From a phage: a DNA stretch of 64,000 nucleotides. Numbering within the stretch: the stretch's first letter is position 1; the number at the start of each line of letters is the position of its first letter. Location of the stretch: sequence record PQ724394.1, one strand, 5' to 3'. Under the pieces are notes generated by a model. The model was not told where the DNA came from. It did not search any database and was given only the letters and a program-made list of their open reading frames with translations. A program made the translations under genes and the position numbers. This document shows positions 4,371 to 64,000 of the stretch, piece after piece.

Positions 4371-6494
4371 CTACATTTTGAATTTATTTGATAAAGAAGA
4401 GATGTCCAAAGATGCAGCAAGGATTTCCATAGCCTCATTACTTTCTGAAACAGATTCTGAAACTAGGAATTCTTTAAACCCATTCATCAATTTAACTTCA
4501 CCGGTTTCCATCAGATGGTCGCCATCGTAAACGGATTCGCTGAGTTCTGAAGGAGATGTCACTGTAGCTTCCATAAGGTATTTGTGAGATACTCTATCAT
4601 TCATAGCAAAAGCCGCTACTTTATCAACCTTCAACAATAACCCGCGCGGAAGGATAATTTCCGCTTCTTCGGCATATTCTGTAAGGTCGCCAGGAGCGAT
4701 AACTTTAACTGCTTCAGCACCTCGAATAACCATACCAATTTCAGCAATCCTGTCTGCAGGGCCTTCAGGTGCAATTGGATTACCAAACTCGTCTTCTTCC
4801 CATTCTACCTCTTCGTCATCGACTTCACCTACGTCAGATGAACTACCACTGGCTAATTTAAACAACTCATCAGCGGAGGATAAAGAACCTTCATCACCGA
4901 CAAAAACTGCTTGGTTGTCGAGGGCCATATAATTTTTACCAAATTCGCCAAAGATATTAGGCTTTAATGAAGCGGACACAAAGTTCTTAAAGTAAAAGGT
5001 TTTGTTATCAATATTATGGCGCAGAATTTTGTATGGTAAATCCTGACCACGATACAAAATAGTACCCTTAGGAAGTTTAATACCCTTGGTAAATGCCGAG
5101 TCTAAATCCTTAATCAATTTAATAGCTGTTGTATTGTTTTCGGATTCAGGTTTACCTAAAAGGAATAAGTTCATAGGAGCATATTCAGCCGCACAATATT
5201 CAATAATGGCATTACTTTCGTCTTTGGTCAAGCCCTTAGGTTTAATGAGCTCGCCTGAATAAGCATATGCATCGCTAATAGAATCGTTAATCAGTTTATA
5301 AACGGCTTCCATAGCGAAAGCAATTCGAGATGCTTTCTCTGAAGGAGACCCCTGAAAACGGGCACTCAGGTTATTAACAATTCTCTTAATAATATCCAGA
5401 CTATTGGTAGTATTGATTTGAGAAAGACCGCTTAAAAGTCTATCGACTTCCGTATTAAAAAATGCCATATTATTAGAGTAAATTTCAAACCCTTGTTTAT
5501 CTCTATTAGCATAATTTAGTTTAAATTTACTATCAGTCATTAAAGCGTGCGTGAGAGCAATGGTGTATCTAAAGTTGGCAAGGTCCTCACTCTTAGATTT
5601 AAACTGAGAGGCCTGTCGCATTTTAGTAATAGAACCTTTTTTAAAGTTCTGGCTAATCTGCTCAATACCTTCGTTCTCAGGGCCTTCGGCCGAGTGAACA
5701 GGGACAGAAGCTTCAAACTCGTTATAAATCTGCAATTCTTTAGGTGATAAAGTTTCGGGTTCGGCAGTAGAATACTGCGCCGCTGCAGCCATACGACGGG
5801 AAATCTTAGTACGAGAAATAACAGCCTTATCGGTACGTTTCTCTTCAACCTGTGCAATAGATGCCGCTACGGCTTCTACTTTACTTACGGCCTGGCCGGT
5901 TTTCTTAGAAACATAAACTTCACCGACTTTAGACTCAACCTTGGTATAAAGGTCTGCATCAATTTCAGGCATACCCTTGATATCTTCGATATTAGAACCA
6001 CGACGTACTAAAAGAACGTAGGTATGTTTACCACTAAACTGGAACATATCATCGACAACTTTAAACTTACCACCGGTACGTGCCATCACCAAACGAGCTA
6101 ATACACGCTGAACGGTAGGACCCTTACCTTTCATTTTCTTGGTAGGGAAACGGAACAAAACTGCATCCATTTTAAGTTTGTTTACTTGTTCGTATACGGT
6201 ATCGAAAATAGTATTCAGTGTACCAAGTGGGTCAGAACCAAGCCCACCTTTGAGTTCAGCCGGAGCACCCTTGCTAGACAAACTCATTAAAATAATATGA
6301 ACGTATTTGTCGCCAGGCTTAACCATTTTAATAGCGTCTCCTTGAGACGCATAAGATACCATACGAGCAACCAGGTTATCATTACCTGGTGCTTGGATAG
6401 AGAAAATCTGTGGGATACCTGAGCCTGGCTTAAGATTTGTTACTGGATAGTTTTTAGCTGAATCACTATCAAAAACTTCGTTTAAATTTTCCAT
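4371..6494 (-). CDS. alt: Alt-type ADP-ribosyltransferase, paralog A (707 aa)
   Basis: N-terminal region conserved with the neighbouring paralog (LVARMVSYAS.GDAIK...LKGGLG); C-terminal R (YRGQ), S-x-S (FVSASL) and E-x-E (EEAEIILPRGL) motifs; position next to DNA ligase as T4 alt. Confidence 0.85.
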   Translation of the reverse strand: MENLNEVFDSDSAKNYPVTNLKPGSGIPQIFSIQAPGNDNLVARMVSYASQGDAIKMVKPGDKYVHIILMSLSSKGAPAELKGGLGSDPLGTLNTIFDTVYEQVNKLKMDAVLFRFPTKKMKGKGPTVQRVLARLVMARTGGKFKVVDDMFQFSGKHTYVLLVRRGSNIEDIKGMPEIDADLYTKVESKVGEVYVSKKTGQAVSKVEAVAASIAQVEEKRTDKAVISRTKISRRMAAAAQYSTAEPETLSPKELQIYNEFEASVPVHSAEGPENEGIEQISQNFKKGSITKMRQASQFKSKSEDLANFRYTIALTHALMTDSKFKLNYANRDKQGFEIYSNNMAFFNTEVDRLLSGLSQINTTNSLDIIKRIVNNLSARFQGSPSEKASRIAFAMEAVYKLINDSISDAYAYSGELIKPKGLTKDESNAIIEYCAAEYAPMNLFLLGKPESENNTTAIKLIKDLDSAFTKGIKLPKGTILYRGQDLPYKILRHNIDNKTFYFKNFVSASLKPNIFGEFGKNYMALDNQAVFVGDEGSLSSADELFKLASGSSSDVGEVDDEEVEWEEDEFGNPIAPEGPADRIAEIGMVIRGAEAVKVIAPGDLTEYAEEAEIILPRGLLLKVDKVAAFAMNDRVSHKYLMEATVTSPSELSESVYDGDHLMETGEVKLMNGFKEFLVSESVSESNEAMEILAASLDISSLSNKFKM

Positions 6495-6497
6495 TAT

Positions 6498-8582
6498 TTA
6501 CCCTTGGATGAATTTTTCTGGTATGTCATAGAGGTCTATGCATGAAGCCAAAAGTGGCAGTACGTCAAACCGTGTAGATTTAACAAATGAATCAAAAGAT
6601 ACAGGGCTTTCGGAAGTATCGAAGTCATCTTGGTATACAACCAATTCACCAGTTTCCATTAGTACGTCACCATCATACACCACAGATTCTTGAAGCTCAT
6701 CTGTGGTCATAACTTCGGCTTGAACGAGTTTTGTATTACTAGATGTTGTTCCGTCATTATTAGAGGCATCGGTTATTTTATTAACTTTGACCATCAATCC
6801 ACGCGGTAGAATAACTTCAGCTTCTGTTGCTATTCCGAGACTTCCTGGATATACAACATTAACTTTATGGGCTCCATCAATTGCCCATCCTATTTGAACT
6901 TTAACGTAATCAGGGTTTTCTTTATACGCTCTTATTTCATTAGGATTAATGGTTATTCCTTCTTCATTTTTATCGACTGTCAATTCATTGCGAACTTCCG
7001 GTTCTAAAAGACCGACACCCGCGTGTGTAACACCAAAACGACCAAAAATGATAGGAGTCAGTGAAGTAGATACAAAATTTCTAAAATAAAATACCTTATT
7101 TTTAACTAGTGCTTCGTATATAGGAGCAGTCATACTTTGAGCACGATAAACTGTAATGCCTTCTGGTATACGGTCACCATTTTCAAAAGCTGAATCAAGA
7201 TTATTAACAGCAGATTCAATAGACCTTTCATTCATTACATCATAGTTCTGAGGATTATAACGTCCTAAAAGAAGATTATTGATGTCGGTATAACCTGAGC
7301 CGCAGTATTCTCTGATGCCGCGCTTTTGTGATGGGGTGTATTTAGAACCATCGCGAGCAATAGTAATATCGACCATAATACCACCGCCTACACCAGCAAA
7401 ACTATATACACGTTTTTTAATGAACTTGGTCTTGGCTGCTTTCCACTTGGACTCGGTTAATTCATTCCAGACGTCGTCAGGCTGACCTTTACGAGTTTTG
7501 TTATGTATAGCCAGCCATTCGCCTTTATATTCTTCAAAAACTGTATTAATAACAGAGGCATACTTTTCTAGAGCTTTAACAGATGTCAAAGGTTCGTTTT
7601 TGATGGCTGTAAGAATTCTCTCTTTAATTTTCTCTTGGATTTCACCTATACCGTGAAGAGGAAACATTTTATATTCATAATGCAACTCTTCAGCAGTGCC
7701 TTCAGCTACTATATTAGCAACTTTATTTTTAGCCGCAGGAGAATTGTTATTGGTGACCATTTCCTGTGCCTCAGGGATTAATGGAGCTGTTGCAGGTTTA
7801 TTAAAATCTGCTGCAGTAGCTTCATATTTCTTAAACAGTTCACTTTCATTACGATAAGATTCTAAAGACTGACTTGCTGCAATAGCGCGACGAGAAATCT
7901 TAGTCTTGGTTATAACCATTTTATCAGTGCGACGTTCTTCAACTTTAGCAATACTGCCGGCAATAGCAGTTTCTTTAGTAACCTGCACACCTTCTTTTTT
8001 AGAAATATAAACTTCACCAACATCAGAATCTACCTTAGTATATAATTCGGCATTAATTCCTGGCATACCTTTGATATCTTCAATATCAGCTTGTTTACGA
8101 ACTACTAGGATATAAGTATGTTTACCGGTAAATTGGTACATGGCTGGAACTACTTTAAAACGTCCACCGGTTTTCTGTGCTACCAAACGTTGGATAATCC
8201 GTTGGACGATAGGTCCTTGTCCTTTCATTTTCTTGGTTGGAAAACGGAACATCACAGCATCCATACGAAGCTTTTTAACTTGTTCGAATACTACGTCGAA
8301 AATGGTATTAATAGCATCAATAGGAGTAGGGCCTAAGCCGCCTTTAAGTTCGGCTGGAGAACCTTTAGCTGAAAGGCTCATAAGGATGACGTGGGCGTAT
8401 TTATCACCTAATTTAACCTGTTTAATAGCATCGCCTTCAGAGGCATAAGATACCATACGGGCCACTAATTGGGATTCGGCGTCGCCAATCTTCCAAATCT
8501 GCGGTACTTTAAGTTTTGGGTTTAAGTTTACAGTAGGCAGGGTGCCTTCAGACTCAAACACTTCATTTAATTGTTCGGTCAT
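6498..8582 (-). CDS. alt: Alt-type ADP-ribosyltransferase, paralog B (694 aa)
   Basis: Same architecture as paralog A; YRAQ, FVSTSL, EAEVILPRGL motifs; AAAGAGGA RBS upstream. Confidence 0.85.
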   Translation of the reverse strand: MTEQLNEVFESEGTLPTVNLNPKLKVPQIWKIGDAESQLVARMVSYASEGDAIKQVKLGDKYAHVILMSLSAKGSPAELKGGLGPTPIDAINTIFDVVFEQVKKLRMDAVMFRFPTKKMKGQGPIVQRIIQRLVAQKTGGRFKVVPAMYQFTGKHTYILVVRKQADIEDIKGMPGINAELYTKVDSDVGEVYISKKEGVQVTKETAIAGSIAKVEERRTDKMVITKTKISRRAIAASQSLESYRNESELFKKYEATAADFNKPATAPLIPEAQEMVTNNNSPAAKNKVANIVAEGTAEELHYEYKMFPLHGIGEIQEKIKERILTAIKNEPLTSVKALEKYASVINTVFEEYKGEWLAIHNKTRKGQPDDVWNELTESKWKAAKTKFIKKRVYSFAGVGGGIMVDITIARDGSKYTPSQKRGIREYCGSGYTDINNLLLGRYNPQNYDVMNERSIESAVNNLDSAFENGDRIPEGITVYRAQSMTAPIYEALVKNKVFYFRNFVSTSLTPIIFGRFGVTHAGVGLLEPEVRNELTVDKNEEGITINPNEIRAYKENPDYVKVQIGWAIDGAHKVNVVYPGSLGIATEAEVILPRGLMVKVNKITDASNNDGTTSSNTKLVQAEVMTTDELQESVVYDGDVLMETGELVVYQDDFDTSESPVSFDSFVKSTRFDVLPLLASCIDLYDIPEKFIQG

Positions 8583-8634: not shown

Positions 8635-8845
8635 AAAGTGGTAGCAACGTACGATATACTTCGAATGTCGGGCCTTTTTCATAGCCATCAAACATGTCTT
8701 TAAAATCGGCAAAAGCTATTTCATCCTCAAACTCTAGGATGATTTGAGAGGCCGCGGTGGTATTTGTATTTGTTACAACAATTGTTTCTAAATAAGCTTT
8801 CATATTATAGTCCAGTTTGAGACCAATCACCAAATACATCTTCAA
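8633..8845 (-). CDS. Hypothetical small protein (70 aa; may start at internal ATG 8803)
   Basis: ORF between ligase and alt; track start overlaps ligase 3' end, internal ATG follows ligase stop by 1 nt. Confidence 0.35.
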   Translation of the reverse strand: MKMYLVIGLKLDYNMKAYLETIVVTNTNTTAASQIILEFEDEIAFADFKDMFDGYEKGPTFEVYRTLLPL

Positions 8846-10310
8846 ATGTATCAGCTTCTGTTTTATCGAAACGCCAACCTTTAATAGTTGGAAGGAAAAT
8901 ACCTACAGTATCAGTACGTCCTTTAGAATGAACCCAACCATTACATTCACAGTCAGCAATACGTCCAATCAACTTACCTTCACGGGCTTGTTTCATAAGA
9001 AGTTCACGGTCTAAATCAGGACGGTTTTCTAATGGGATTAATACCTTTTTACCGGATTTATCTTTCTTATGGGTGGTATCTTTAAAACCGGAACCACAGT
9101 CAGTTGTAATACGACGGCACCGTGATACTAACTCAATACCACCAATCTTGTTAGGGTCTTTAGAGTGTTCATAATAACCTACTACTTCTAAAGCAATATC
9201 GATTACTTCTTTGAACTTTATAAGATTCTTAGAACGGCGGTTCTCCCAGTAGGAGTCCATGTTCTTAAGGATAATACCTTCCAAGCGTTTGCCGATATAT
9301 TTCTTATAAACTGCTTTAGCTTCGTCCAGGTTATTAACCCACTGCGTTTCGATAGGCTCGACACGTGTAAAACCTTCAGCCATTTGTACTAATGCCGCTA
9401 AACGAACATCGTATTTTTGACCTTTAATTTTGCCTTCAGAATAAACTTCATCCAATGGAACATAGTCCCACGCCTGTAATACCATGCCATCAGCTTCAGC
9501 TGGAGTAATAGTTCCTTGAAGAGCCTTGTTAGCCAAGCCATTTGACGTAGAACGATCGGCTACGGTTTGGAACTCCTTAGCCTTACTTAATTCAGGAAGT
9601 TCTTCATCAAACATACTAAACAAATCATTAGATGCTTTAGGTTCTACTTTAGGTGTATGGTAAACTAATTCACCATCAATCATAACACCATTAGGATGAC
9701 GCTGACGAGCTTCTTCGGTCATTTTAATAAGTTCGGCCGCAAGCTTAGTAAGCCCTTGATATTCGTTCCCACCACGAGTAAGGAATGTTACCCCATCGTT
9801 ACGAACTTCAGCAAAACAACGGGCACCGTCAGCTTTTAATTGGGCGAACGCTGGCCATTTAATATTTTTCTTAATCAGGGCTTCGTCATAAGAACTAGCC
9901 AACATTTGAGGTTGTTCAGGGATTAAACCTTTCCAAACCTTGTTAGCAATAGAAATCGATGCACCACATTCAAGGTCACGCATCATTACTCGACGTAATA
10001 CCTCAGCGTCAGGACCCTTAGCATCGGCAATAATTTGGGCAAGCTCTTCAATAGCCGCATTACCTGTAATCTTACGGGTGGCTAATGTGAACTCAGCGAA
10101 ATCAAGAAGGTCTTCAAGTGTAATCATACCAAAGGATTGAGACGTAAATCCAGGTTCAGGCCACTTTTTAATACCGTAGTTTAAACGACGGGTATAAGCC
10201 ATACGATATACACGTTTCAGAAGCTCGTTATCCTTTTCACGAGCAATAATAGCTTCTTTAGCTTTAGTAGAATCAATAGAAGCAATTTCGTTTAAAATAT
10301 CTAAAATCAT
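8805..10310 (-). CDS. 30: ATP-dependent DNA ligase (gp30)
   Basis: N-terminus MILDILNEIASIDSTK.. and KADGARCF adenylation motif match T4 DNA ligase; 501 aa. Confidence 0.95.
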   Translation of the reverse strand: MILDILNEIASIDSTKAKEAIIAREKDNELLKRVYRMAYTRRLNYGIKKWPEPGFTSQSFGMITLEDLLDFAEFTLATRKITGNAAIEELAQIIADAKGPDAEVLRRVMMRDLECGASISIANKVWKGLIPEQPQMLASSYDEALIKKNIKWPAFAQLKADGARCFAEVRNDGVTFLTRGGNEYQGLTKLAAELIKMTEEARQRHPNGVMIDGELVYHTPKVEPKASNDLFSMFDEELPELSKAKEFQTVADRSTSNGLANKALQGTITPAEADGMVLQAWDYVPLDEVYSEGKIKGQKYDVRLAALVQMAEGFTRVEPIETQWVNNLDEAKAVYKKYIGKRLEGIILKNMDSYWENRRSKNLIKFKEVIDIALEVVGYYEHSKDPNKIGGIELVSRCRRITTDCGSGFKDTTHKKDKSGKKVLIPLENRPDLDRELLMKQAREGKLIGRIADCECNGWVHSKGRTDTVGIFLPTIKGWRFDKTEADTFEDVFGDWSQTGL

Positions 10311-10630
10311 TTTACCGTCCTTACAGTTTGTGTACTTCTATTATAAGCTACTTCATCTAAAAGCTCATTTAAAGTTTTGTGATACGATATAATACGCTTA
10401 TCTTTAATATCATATTCAGTAACATACATAAATCCACGCCGAACACATTGGATAAAGATATCTTCATCTTTGGCTTGGAAATATACAGGGTTCAATCGAA
10501 GGAATTGTCTAACGTTTCCATAATCATGGGATTTAGGGATTCCATCAGTAATAGTATGAACAACAAACATATTAACCTCGTGCAATCCATTCAACGGCTG
10601 CATTATTACGAAGGGATTCGATTGCTGCAA
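10307..10630 (-). CDS. Hypothetical protein (107 aa; start uncertain)
   Basis: ORF overlapping 3' end of upstream gene by 59 nt; true start probably an internal Met. Confidence 0.35.
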   Translation of the reverse strand: MQQSNPFVIMQPLNGLHEVNMFVVHTITDGIPKSHDYGNVRQFLRLNPVYFQAKDEDIFIQCVRRGFMYVTEYDIKDKRIISYHKTLNELLDEVAYNRSTQTVRTVK

Positions 10631-11210
10631 TATCGTCCCATGAATTAACCTTTACGGCTAAATTAGGTTTAAAGTCGCGTTCACCACGGGCTAACCAATA
10701 AACTTGGATATCCATGAGAATATTAGATGCAGCATCACAGTGGTGAGCCAAATCGTCAACATAAAACTTAATGCGTTTACCGTATGTATTTTTAGCTCTT
10801 ATGAACAGGTCTTCTTTTGATTCTGAATGACCACACATCAGAATCTCCTTGAATGCACCAGGGAACAAAGCATTCAAATTGAATTGTCTATTCAGCAGAG
10901 CATCAATTGAGTCGCCTAGCGCAGTCACGGCTACAAAATCGAAGTCTTTTTTGAGCTTGTTGATGTGTTTTAATGCATCCATGTAAGGGGACAGATAACG
11001 AATAAAATCTGACTGGTTATATTTCTCGATTAAACGTGCGCCTAATTCGTCGTCACAATTAAACAGTTCGCCTGGAGATAAGAAACGTTCGTCCTGAATC
11101 ATATTCAAAATATGTTCTAAAGGCAAATTATATTTCTGTGCGAAATAAGGCAAGCCGGACTGCCAACTTAAACATACTCCATCGATATCTGTTAAGATAA
11201 CTGGTTTCAT
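10572..11210 (-). CDS. HAD-superfamily hydrolase-like protein (212 aa)
   Basis: HAD motif I VILTDIDGV near N-terminus, downstream YVDDL acidic motif. Confidence 0.55.
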   Translation of the reverse strand: MKPVILTDIDGVCLSWQSGLPYFAQKYNLPLEHILNMIQDERFLSPGELFNCDDELGARLIEKYNQSDFIRYLSPYMDALKHINKLKKDFDFVAVTALGDSIDALLNRQFNLNALFPGAFKEILMCGHSESKEDLFIRAKNTYGKRIKFYVDDLAHHCDAASNILMDIQVYWLARGERDFKPNLAVKVNSWDDIAAIESLRNNAAVEWIARG

Positions 11211-11674
11211 AATAAATCTCTCAATTTGTTTAGGATGTCGATAAACTCTTTTTCAGTTAGTATTGTATCACATTCTTTGAGGTGGCTTGCCATTGAATGC
11301 TTTAAAACCTTACCTTTAGTGGCTTGTAAAGCTTCTCGGAATCCTTTGTTCTGGAGTGCTGCTTCAAAATACGCACTTTCGTAAAGCTCTTTCCATGCTT
11401 CGGAATATCTTGAAAACGGGGTTCCAAGCCAGAACAACGTGCCACGGTCCTGAGCTCTAGCATAAGCTCGTCCAGCTTTTTGTGCGTCTAACCCGGACAT
11501 CCTAAATATACGTCTTTGTTGTTCAACACTTTTCACCTTACATCCTTGGAGGAATCCTTCGAGTCCACCAAATTGGATACCGTCCATAACGAAAGGCCAT
11601 TTAGCAAAGTTACTTAATGCGCATGATGGCCACGGAAAGTTACTTCTAATTTCTAACTCAGACATCTTTGACAC
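11207..11674 (-). CDS. NADAR/YbiA-like (DUF1768-type) protein (155 aa)
   Basis: LSNFAKWPFVMDGIQF...EGFLQGCKV and LQATKGKVLKHS resemble the YbiA/NADAR signature (FSNFA.WP..DG...EH.FQ..K) as recalled from memory. Confidence 0.5.
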   Translation of the reverse strand: MSKMSELEIRSNFPWPSCALSNFAKWPFVMDGIQFGGLEGFLQGCKVKSVEQQRRIFRMSGLDAQKAGRAYARAQDRGTLFWLGTPFSRYSEAWKELYESAYFEAALQNKGFREALQATKGKVLKHSMASHLKECDTILTEKEFIDILNKLRDLL

Positions 11675-11870
11675 TTATAATCTTGGTAGCGTACCACATA
11701 CCATGGTCCGGTAATCTGGATTTAATTGACCGCCCACGATATGTTTTTCGCATTATAACAGTCTTAATAACATCTTCATCACAAGCATATGGCGGCGATA
11801 AGTCGATAACACGATAAGTCACTTCAACCATTTCTAGGCCAAACAGCTTTTTAAGCCATTTCTTAACCAT
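11658..11870 (-). CDS. Hypothetical protein (70 aa)
   Basis: ORF in 30.x-like accessory block. Confidence 0.4.
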   Translation of the reverse strand: MVKKWLKKLFGLEMVEVTYRVIDLSPPYACDEDVIKTVIMRKTYRGRSIKSRLPDHGMWYATKIISVKDV

Positions 11871-63807: not shown

Positions 63808-64000
63808 TCAGTAAGAAAGAACGGAAAGATTCCAAATAGTGTAATTATTCCATTTAGGATTTCTCTCAATAGAGTCTACGCGTAGCGTAGTTCCCGCAGG
63901 GAACATCATCTCATCTTCATCATTAATTAATTGTAAGTTTGCTACACGGGTAGATTCAGGAAATGCTCCTGGGAACTCTTCAGGGGGAGCAGCACACAAC
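63808..64000 (-). CDS. 3' end of a Mod-like ADP-ribosyltransferase gene (5' part beyond window)
   Basis: C-terminus contains EDEMMFPAGTTLRV, matching the ExE catalytic block of the two Alt paralogs (EAEIILPRGLLLKV / EAEVILPRGLMVKV). Confidence 0.5.
   Translation of the reverse strand, partial: LCAAPPEEFPGAFPESTRVANLQLINDEDEMMFPAGTTLRVDSIERNPKWNNYTIWNLSVLSY

Follow-up and report, generated by a model that had tools for sequence, protein, structure and literature searches.

The stretch of phage DNA analyzed here (sequence record PQ724394.1; 64,000 nucleotides, below called the window) includes the segment from gene 30 to gene 31 of a JS98-like T4-type (Dhakavirus) genome; over the 4 kb around the genes of interest, its DNA is 94% identical to, and colinear with, that of Escherichia phage JS98 (Dhakavirus, Straboviridae). 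This report concerns two neighboring minus-strand genes, for which an earlier note on the sequence had proposed a NADAR-like and a HAD-like protein that might together form a module processing ADP-ribose marks. We conclude that the first gene is very probably the Dhakavirus ortholog of T4 adfN (gene 30.3) and that the second, 30.2, encodes a separate HAD phosphatase that is not its partner. The two genes and the features of adfN on which the assignment turns are as follows.

11207-11665, minus strand: adfN, ortholog of T4 gene 30.3, encoding a 152-amino-acid NADAR-fold protein, a predicted DNA ADP-ribosylglycohydrolase
11558-11560, minus strand: Glu36 codon, catalytic residue by T4 numbering
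11537-11539, minus strand: Lys43 codon, catalytic or ADP-ribose-contacting residue by T4 numbering
11297-11299, minus strand: His123 codon, marking the gp30.3 subfamily of phage NADARs
11213-11254, minus strand: C-terminal alpha-helix, residues 138-151, intact
10572-11210, minus strand: ortholog of T4 gene 30.2, encoding a 212-amino-acid HAD-superfamily phosphatase-type protein

A gp30.3-type NADAR protein

The open reading frame (ORF) as first listed begins at GTG 11674, three codons further upstream. The true adfN start is almost certainly ATG 11665, because it yields a protein of 152 amino acids, as in the JS98 and T4 annotations, because the 30.4 stop codon overlaps this ATG (11663-11665) in the manner ATGTCTGA, and because Glu36 and Lys43 then fall at their published T4 positions. 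The protein matched the Pfam family PF08010 (Phage_30_3) in a profile search with an expectation value (E) of 1.4e-64. Its identity with T4 gp30.3 is 84% over 152 of 152 residues, with 24 substitutions and no gaps, and its identity with JS98 gp30.3 is 99%. The literature places Phage_30_3, or gp30.3, proteins in the NADAR superfamily as its phage branch, which is recognized by a last-strand histidine (PMC11125620).

The generic Pfam NADAR family, PF08719, gave no match at E ≤ 1 with the window protein alone, so that the NADAR link was established through the family members, a PDB profile search, and the fold. PF08719 was matched by 20 of the 80 gp30.3 family members (best E, 1.5e-7), and the only PDB sequence match of gp30.3 was Escherichia coli YbiA (profile E, 0.011), with the SNFA...E-G-F-L-Q..K signature inside the aligned region. 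An AlphaFold2 model built from the 80 homologs had a mean predicted local distance difference test (pLDDT) score of 93.7 and a predicted template modeling score of 0.89, and it shows the NADAR alpha+beta fold, in which small beta-hairpins flank the core helices. The only credible Foldseek matches to this model in the PDB were YbiA (2b3w; probability, 1.00), a Phytophthora NADAR with bound ADP-ribose (8bau; 1.00), and the Geobacter lovleyi NADAR (8bat; 0.97), all others scoring 0.07 or less.

Residue conservation was assessed in 80 homologs of gp30.3 and 70 of gp30.2, in alignments built without the T4 rows. Glu36, His123, and 14 further residues of gp30.3 were invariant; Lys43 was present in at least 90% of the 80 homologs and was invariant in an alignment of 10 sequences. 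Glu36 and Lys43 align with the E..FQ..K of YbiA, and the NADAR signature E-x-[FY]-x-Q-x(2)-K is kept. His123 adjoins the last strand of the model (residues 120-122), where a histidine in the gp30.3 subfamily replaces the glutamate of the YbiA family or the aspartate of the BC4488 family (PMC11125620). The protein is full length and colinear with its T4 counterpart to the last residue, and it keeps the C-terminal helix seen in the model, without a frameshift of the kind found in phage RB69. The NADAR resemblance claimed in the earlier note was thus borne out by profile, fold, and catalytic residues alike, and the window protein is a member of the NADAR superfamily, of the gp30.3/AdfN(T4)-type subfamily. 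The PF08010 match, the 84% identity, the conserved residues, and the NADAR fold together make it an ortholog of T4 AdfN.

What is known of T4 AdfN, and its bearing on the window allele

In vitro, T4 gp30.3 hydrolyzes ADP-ribose on DNA when it is linked to guanosine but not when it is linked to thymidine (PMC11125620, Toxins 2024), and every NADAR tested, gp30.3 included, is specific for ADP-ribose attached to guanine in DNA (PMC11125620, PMC11825919). Johannesman et al. (Nat Commun 2025, PMC11825919) traced the resistance of T-even phages against DarTG1 to gene 30.3, for which they introduced the name adfN. In that work, purified T4 AdfN stripped ADP-ribose from DarT1-modified DNA and was impaired by the E36A and K43A changes and by truncation of its C terminus; RB69, in which a natural frameshift removes the last 15 residues and with them the helix, was sensitive to DarTG1 and was rescued by T4 adfN; and the nearest relatives of gp30.3 in a phylogeny were the DarT1-associated NADARs and not YbiA. 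In a T4 transposon screen (HIDEN-SEQ 2025, bioRxiv 10.1101/2025.11.20.689424), insertions in 30.3 were lost on a DarTG1 host (log2 fold change, -7.25; adjusted p, 0). On a K-12 host without DarTG1, T4 30.3 is dispensable, with 27 of its 28 TA sites hit (10.1101/2025.11.20.689424), and T4 transposon insertion sequencing (Tn-seq) found its insertions neutral in LB versus M9 medium. Insertions in T4 30.4 were mildly depleted on DarTG1 (log2 fold change, -1.79; adjusted p, 0.014; 10.1101/2025.11.20.689424); this most likely reflects a polar effect on adfN, or translational coupling to it, and not a function of gp30.4 itself.

The window gene shares with T4 adfN its position in the order 30.4-30.3-30.2-30.1-30-alt.1-alt, its length of 152 codons, the residues Glu36, Lys43, and His123, and an intact C-terminal helix. 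It differs in belonging to a Dhakavirus with two alt copies and in its 24 substitutions, and the window allele is known from its sequence. With the DarG1 and DarT1-associated NADAR antitoxins, such as the Geobacter lovleyi protein above, it shares the fold, and the chemistry, hydrolysis of guanine-ADP-ribose on DNA, would be the same; they are the closest nonphage relatives in the published phylogeny. Unlike them, however, the phage protein lacks their N-terminal extension, has no paired DarT toxin, and carries histidine for aspartate in the last strand.

From this likeness, we infer that the window allele encodes a small stand-alone enzyme that, like its T4 ortholog, strips guanine-ADP-ribose from DNA and protects the phage from DarTG1. 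Infection would trigger the host DarTG1 toxin-antitoxin defense, and the DarT1 toxin would ADP-ribosylate guanines in the phage DNA and so block replication; AdfN would then cleave the N-glycosidic bond that joins ADP-ribose to guanine, and replication of the restored DNA could proceed. Glu36, Lys43, and the subfamily-specific His123 would serve in catalysis, and full activity would require the C-terminal helix. The gene would be expressed from an early or middle transcription unit running from 30.7 to 30, in which it overlaps with 30.4 on its upstream side and with 30.2 on its downstream side, and gp30.2 would be a separate, dispensable accessory enzyme, a Mg2+-dependent HAD phosphomonoesterase with a C1 cap.

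The earlier note was thus right to propose an ADP-ribose-removing counterdefense enzyme, an activity shown for the 84%-identical T4 ortholog (PMC11825919, PMC11125620, 10.1101/2025.11.20.689424). The note had also called such an enzyme unexplored, which is wrong: earlier bioinformatic studies had already included gp30.3 among the phage NADARs, and T4 gp30.3 has been characterized as AdfN since 2024-25. The enzyme and its counterdefense role are already known through T4, and the window case is a rediscovery of published biology. As a discovery it carries little weight, the presence of the gene across T-even-like phages having been published; its practical value lies in annotation. In JS98-type Dhakaviruses adfN still bears the label "hypothetical protein"; like them, the phage of the window has an intact adfN, and it is predicted to resist DarTG1-type defense.

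gp30.2, a HAD-superfamily protein

The product of the downstream gene belongs to phrog_420 (E, 2.4e-70), a family without an assigned function, and is 75% identical to the N-terminal 191 amino acids of T4 gp30.2. The tail outside the HAD domain varies in length: the protein has 212 amino acids in the window and JS98, 278 in T4 (locus L002, 6475-7311), and 196 to 347 among homologs. T4 gp30.2 and many of its relatives carry such a variable C-terminal tail, whereas the window protein is without that of T4. The HAD motif I picked out in the earlier note (D8-I-D10-G-V) was recovered, along with motifs II to IV and a HAD fold.

11181-11189, minus strand: HAD motif I, Asp8-Ile-Asp10, supplying the nucleophile and the general acid/base in HADs of the phosphatase type, where strand 4-7 ends
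10923-10925, minus strand: HAD motif II, Thr96, at the end of strand 91-96
10815-10817, minus strand: HAD motif III, Lys132
10752-10757, minus strand: HAD motif IV, Asp152-Asp153, the Mg2+ ligands, at the end of strand 147-152

Asp8, Asp10, Lys132, Asp152, and Asp153 were invariant in the 70 homologs, and Thr96 was present in at least 90% of them. In the model, each motif falls at the strand end where it is expected. The AlphaFold2 model (pLDDT, 93.6) has a HAD core, and helices inserted between motif I and motif II (approximately residues 16-86) form a C1 cap. Foldseek matched 159 PDB chains to the model at E ≤ 1e-3, and the 50 listed are without exception HAD-superfamily enzymes; the general HAD family PF00702 was matched by 12 of the 70 homologs. 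Judged by its motifs and its model, gp30.2 is a genuine member of the HAD superfamily and a predicted phosphomonoesterase.

A C1 cap normally points to a small-molecule substrate, which is therefore the most likely kind for gp30.2, and by analogy with the 5'(3')-deoxyribonucleotidases, the likeliest substrate would be a nucleoside monophosphate. With these enzymes (NT5C, PF06941; mouse cdN, 2jao) it shares the HAD core, the DxD-G-V motif, an aromatic residue at +8, and the helical C1 cap. They are its best matches at the sequence level and a good match in structure. The best PDB sequence alignment was with the mouse cytosolic 5'(3')-deoxyribonucleotidase, placing Trp16 opposite the phenylalanine that follows motif I in that enzyme, and several viral structural neighbors found by Foldseek in BFVD are named 5'-nucleotidase, none of them characterized. 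PF06941 was matched at E ≤ 0.05 by 8 of the 70 homologs (best E, 0.002); the window protein alone scored 12.9 bits against this family (E, about 0.1), below the gathering threshold of 24.8. By these profile scores gp30.2 resembles NT5C only and is not filed as a member; by Foldseek, other C1-cap HADs (YfnB, the haloacid dehalogenases, and HDHD4) score as high as the 5'(3')-deoxyribonucleotidases.

A literature search for gp30.2 found no mention of the protein. T4 30.2 is nonessential on K-12, where 72 of 72 TA sites were hit (10.1101/2025.11.20.689424), and no phenotype was seen in LB versus M9 Tn-seq (log2 fold change, -0.10). For T4, a contribution of gp30.2 to DarTG1 resistance, to growth on K-12, or to fitness in LB versus M9 is excluded. 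Conserved in approximately 1,400 phage genomes, the protein is an ordinary but reasonable target for biochemical screening.

Relationship between AdfN and gp30.2, and other readings of the locus

Several observations weigh against the reading of the locus as an AdfN ortholog beside an independent nucleotidase-like phosphatase. The window protein differs from T4 gp30.3 at 16% of its residues, and the activity has been shown for the T4 ortholog only. T4 AdfN does not rescue uninfected cells from DarT1 toxicity, a further T-even factor reportedly being needed (PMC11125620, PMC11825919), and in such cells it is no substitute for DarG1. For gp30.2, Foldseek searches of BFVD and the PDB fail to separate nucleotidases from other HADs with a C1 cap, and the sequence scores behind the substrate assignment are marginal.

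The need for a further factor makes the neighborhood of the two genes relevant. They could form a two-enzyme module in which gp30.2 processes the ADP-ribose released by the NADAR, or a phosphorylated form of it, or is itself the T-even factor that AdfN needs, T4 AdfN being fully active only during T-even infection. Their overlap at ATGA, where the 30.2 start codon meets the adfN stop codon, and their common orientation in the window, JS98, and T4 would fit such a module, as would the near-equal spread of the two families in the Straboviridae (1511 phage records for gp30.3 versus 1438 for gp30.2, with the same host spectrum). Both, however, are near-core genes within a single virus family, and the genome-level co-occurrence is explained by this shared ancestry and not by linkage. 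A gp30.2 homolog lay within 4 kb at only 19 of the 80 IMG/VR loci with a gp30.3 homolog (T4- and JS98-like loci and a few others). In Klebsiella phage Roth51, the gp30.3 gene lies in a tRNA cluster at approximately 66.6 kb and the gp30.2 gene lies by the ligase and an Alt-type transferase gene at approximately 125 kb, 58 kb away. Furthermore, on the DarTG1 host on which T4 30.3 insertions were lost, 30.2 insertions were neutral (log2 fold change, -0.12; p, 0.61; 71 TA sites; 10.1101/2025.11.20.689424). We therefore consider the module highly improbable and, for DarTG1, largely refuted; gp30.2 as the T-even factor potentiating AdfN was rejected on gene neighborhood and T4 Tn-seq, and the module of NADAR and HAD proteins, with or without the ligase, that the earlier note had envisaged is not upheld. 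Because the Roth51 gp30.3 gene is 58 kb from those for gp30.2, ligase, and Alt, we regard 30.2-ligase-alt as the conserved neighborhood and the NADAR gene as a mobile element that moves independently of it. The Roth51 adfN homolog (locus L083, 3501-3950) is close to a short ORF annotated as the anti-CBASS gene acb1.

If AdfN and gp30.2 are separate enzymes, each might still do something else. It is unlikely, though less so than the module, that gp30.2 is a conditional antidefense or nucleotide-pool enzyme (for example, one dephosphorylating a toxic nucleotide made by a defense system or an ADP-ribose-derived phosphate) and that AdfN would have extra substrates beyond DarT1 adducts. We also think it very unlikely that the NADAR protein acts mainly on soluble low-molecular-weight ADP-ribose derivatives, such as immune signals or by-products of RNA repair, and not on DNA. 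A role of this sort was proposed for phage NADARs from comparative genomics (PMC9503650), in some T4-like phages the gp30.3 gene sits among tRNA genes beside the ORF annotated acb1, and T4 AdfN does not neutralize DarT1 toxicity in the absence of infection, so that a different or a further substrate is conceivable. The in vitro de-ADP-ribosylation of DNA, the catalytic mutants, and the strong DarTG1-specific Tn-seq phenotype, however, already explain a physiological role.

The presence of ADP-ribosyltransferase genes in the same genome had led to the suggestion that the NADAR protein erases marks made by the phage's own Alt, ModA, or ModB, as self-repair or regulation, which now appears extremely improbable. 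Alt and Mod modify protein arginines, targets unlike the guanine-DNA adducts for which the tested NADARs are specific. It is true that adfN is near two alt paralogs in the window and that T4-like NADARs are expressed early together with the transferases (PMC9503650), but in other genera the NADAR gene is not near alt. Moreover, 30.3 is nonessential on K-12 and without effect in LB versus M9, and the published T4 tables list insertions in alt as neutral on both DarTG1 and RnlAB and those in modA as neutral on RnlAB. There is next to no chance, finally, that gp30.3 is a housekeeping N-glycosidase of the YbiA type, acting on riboflavin-pathway intermediates. YbiA is the best PDB match of gp30.3 in both sequence and structure (E, 1.4e-4; template modeling score, 0.68) and shares the SNF...E..FQ..K signature. 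The identity, however, is only 18%, the glutamate in the last strand of YbiA, a member of a group of riboflavin-metabolism housekeeping enzymes, is the invariant His123 in gp30.3, and the phylogeny groups gp30.3 with the DarT1-associated NADARs (PMC11825919). An AdfN that acts on DNA thus remains the preferred reading.

Gene order and expression

On the minus strand the genes run 30.7, 30.6, 30.5, 30.4, 30.3, 30.2, 30.1, 30 (DNA ligase), alt.1, alt, and alt. The features around adfN and 30.2 are as follows.

11658-11870, minus strand: homolog of gene 30.4, 70 amino acids, no assigned function (phrog_2042; E, 4e-25)
10307-10570, minus strand: homolog of gene 30.1 (DUF3045), 87 amino acids from ATG 10570, between 30.2 and the ligase gene (PF11243; E, 6.7e-20; annotated length in JS98, 264 nt)
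8805-10310, minus strand: gene 30, ATP-dependent DNA ligase (PF01068; E, 4.8e-23; phrog_114; E, 5e-156)
6498-8582, minus strand: Alt-like ADP-ribosyltransferase paralog, 694 amino acids (phrog_802; E, 1e-263; PF03496; E, 1.5e-35)
4371-6494, minus strand: Alt-like ADP-ribosyltransferase paralog, 707 amino acids (phrog_802; E, 9e-251)
63808-63999, minus strand: C-terminal fragment of a Mod-type RNA polymerase ADP-ribosylase, a 63-amino-acid ORF cut by the end of the window (phrog_832; E, 6e-7)

These profile matches bear out all three ADP-ribosyltransferase genes that had been claimed, the two Alt paralogs and the Mod-like gene at the window edge. The placement of the NADAR gene beside DNA ligase holds in part: the ligase gene is nearby, but adfN is two genes (30.2 and 30.1) away and does not directly adjoin it. 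The tandem pair of full-length alt genes is common to the window and JS98, where the annotation is the same; T4 has only fragments, alt.-1 and alt.-2, of the second copy.

The overlap of the 30.4 stop codon with the adfN start makes it likely that these two genes are cotranscribed and translationally coupled. An extended -10 promoter-like site lies upstream of 30.7 (12829-12802, minus strand), and a terminator-like 9-bp GC-rich hairpin with a T-run follows 30.9 (13321-13300, minus strand); both are consensus matches only. Bounded by the promoter-like site and the hairpin, the genes from 30.7 to 30 may form one transcription unit, as these sequence elements suggest.

In the unannotated genome of phage Ec2-ASingh (PQ561418.1; 63,988 bp), the encoded gp30.2 matches that of the window with 100% identity and the encoded gp30.3 with 99.3% identity, whereas the surrounding 4 kb of DNA is only approximately 94% identical. 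This disparity indicates local mosaicism among Dhakavirus-like phages.

Short gp30.3 entries, an internal ORF, and gene fragments

Some Dhakavirus relatives have short gp30.3 entries of 91 or 126 amino acids, and IME08 is annotated with 30.3 twice. Natural truncation of adfN in these phages was considered and rejected. The UGJNEcP4 DNA behind the 91-amino-acid entry (locus L086, 2423-2890) is colinear with the window adfN and open throughout; the 126-amino-acid entries probably reflect an alternative start call, their length fitting a start at Met27; and the second 30.3 coding sequence of IME08 is the internal ORF 30.3'. The short entries (P0004-P0006 and P0013) are best explained as gene-calling artifacts, not as adfN loss of the RB69 kind.

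The window counterpart of 30.3', the internal out-of-frame ORF of T4, lies at 11302-11463 (minus strand). It encodes 53 amino acids versus 75 in T4, is 53% identical to the T4 ORF versus 84% in the main frame, and does not keep the T4 start. Because of this low conservation and the missing start, 30.3' is probably not a gene.

In two metagenomic loci, a second short ORF fragment resembling gp30.3 (E, about 1e-18) was seen approximately 0.7-1 kb upstream of the full-length gene (L030, 3246-3365, and L076, 3013-3156); these fragments may be remnants of a duplication.

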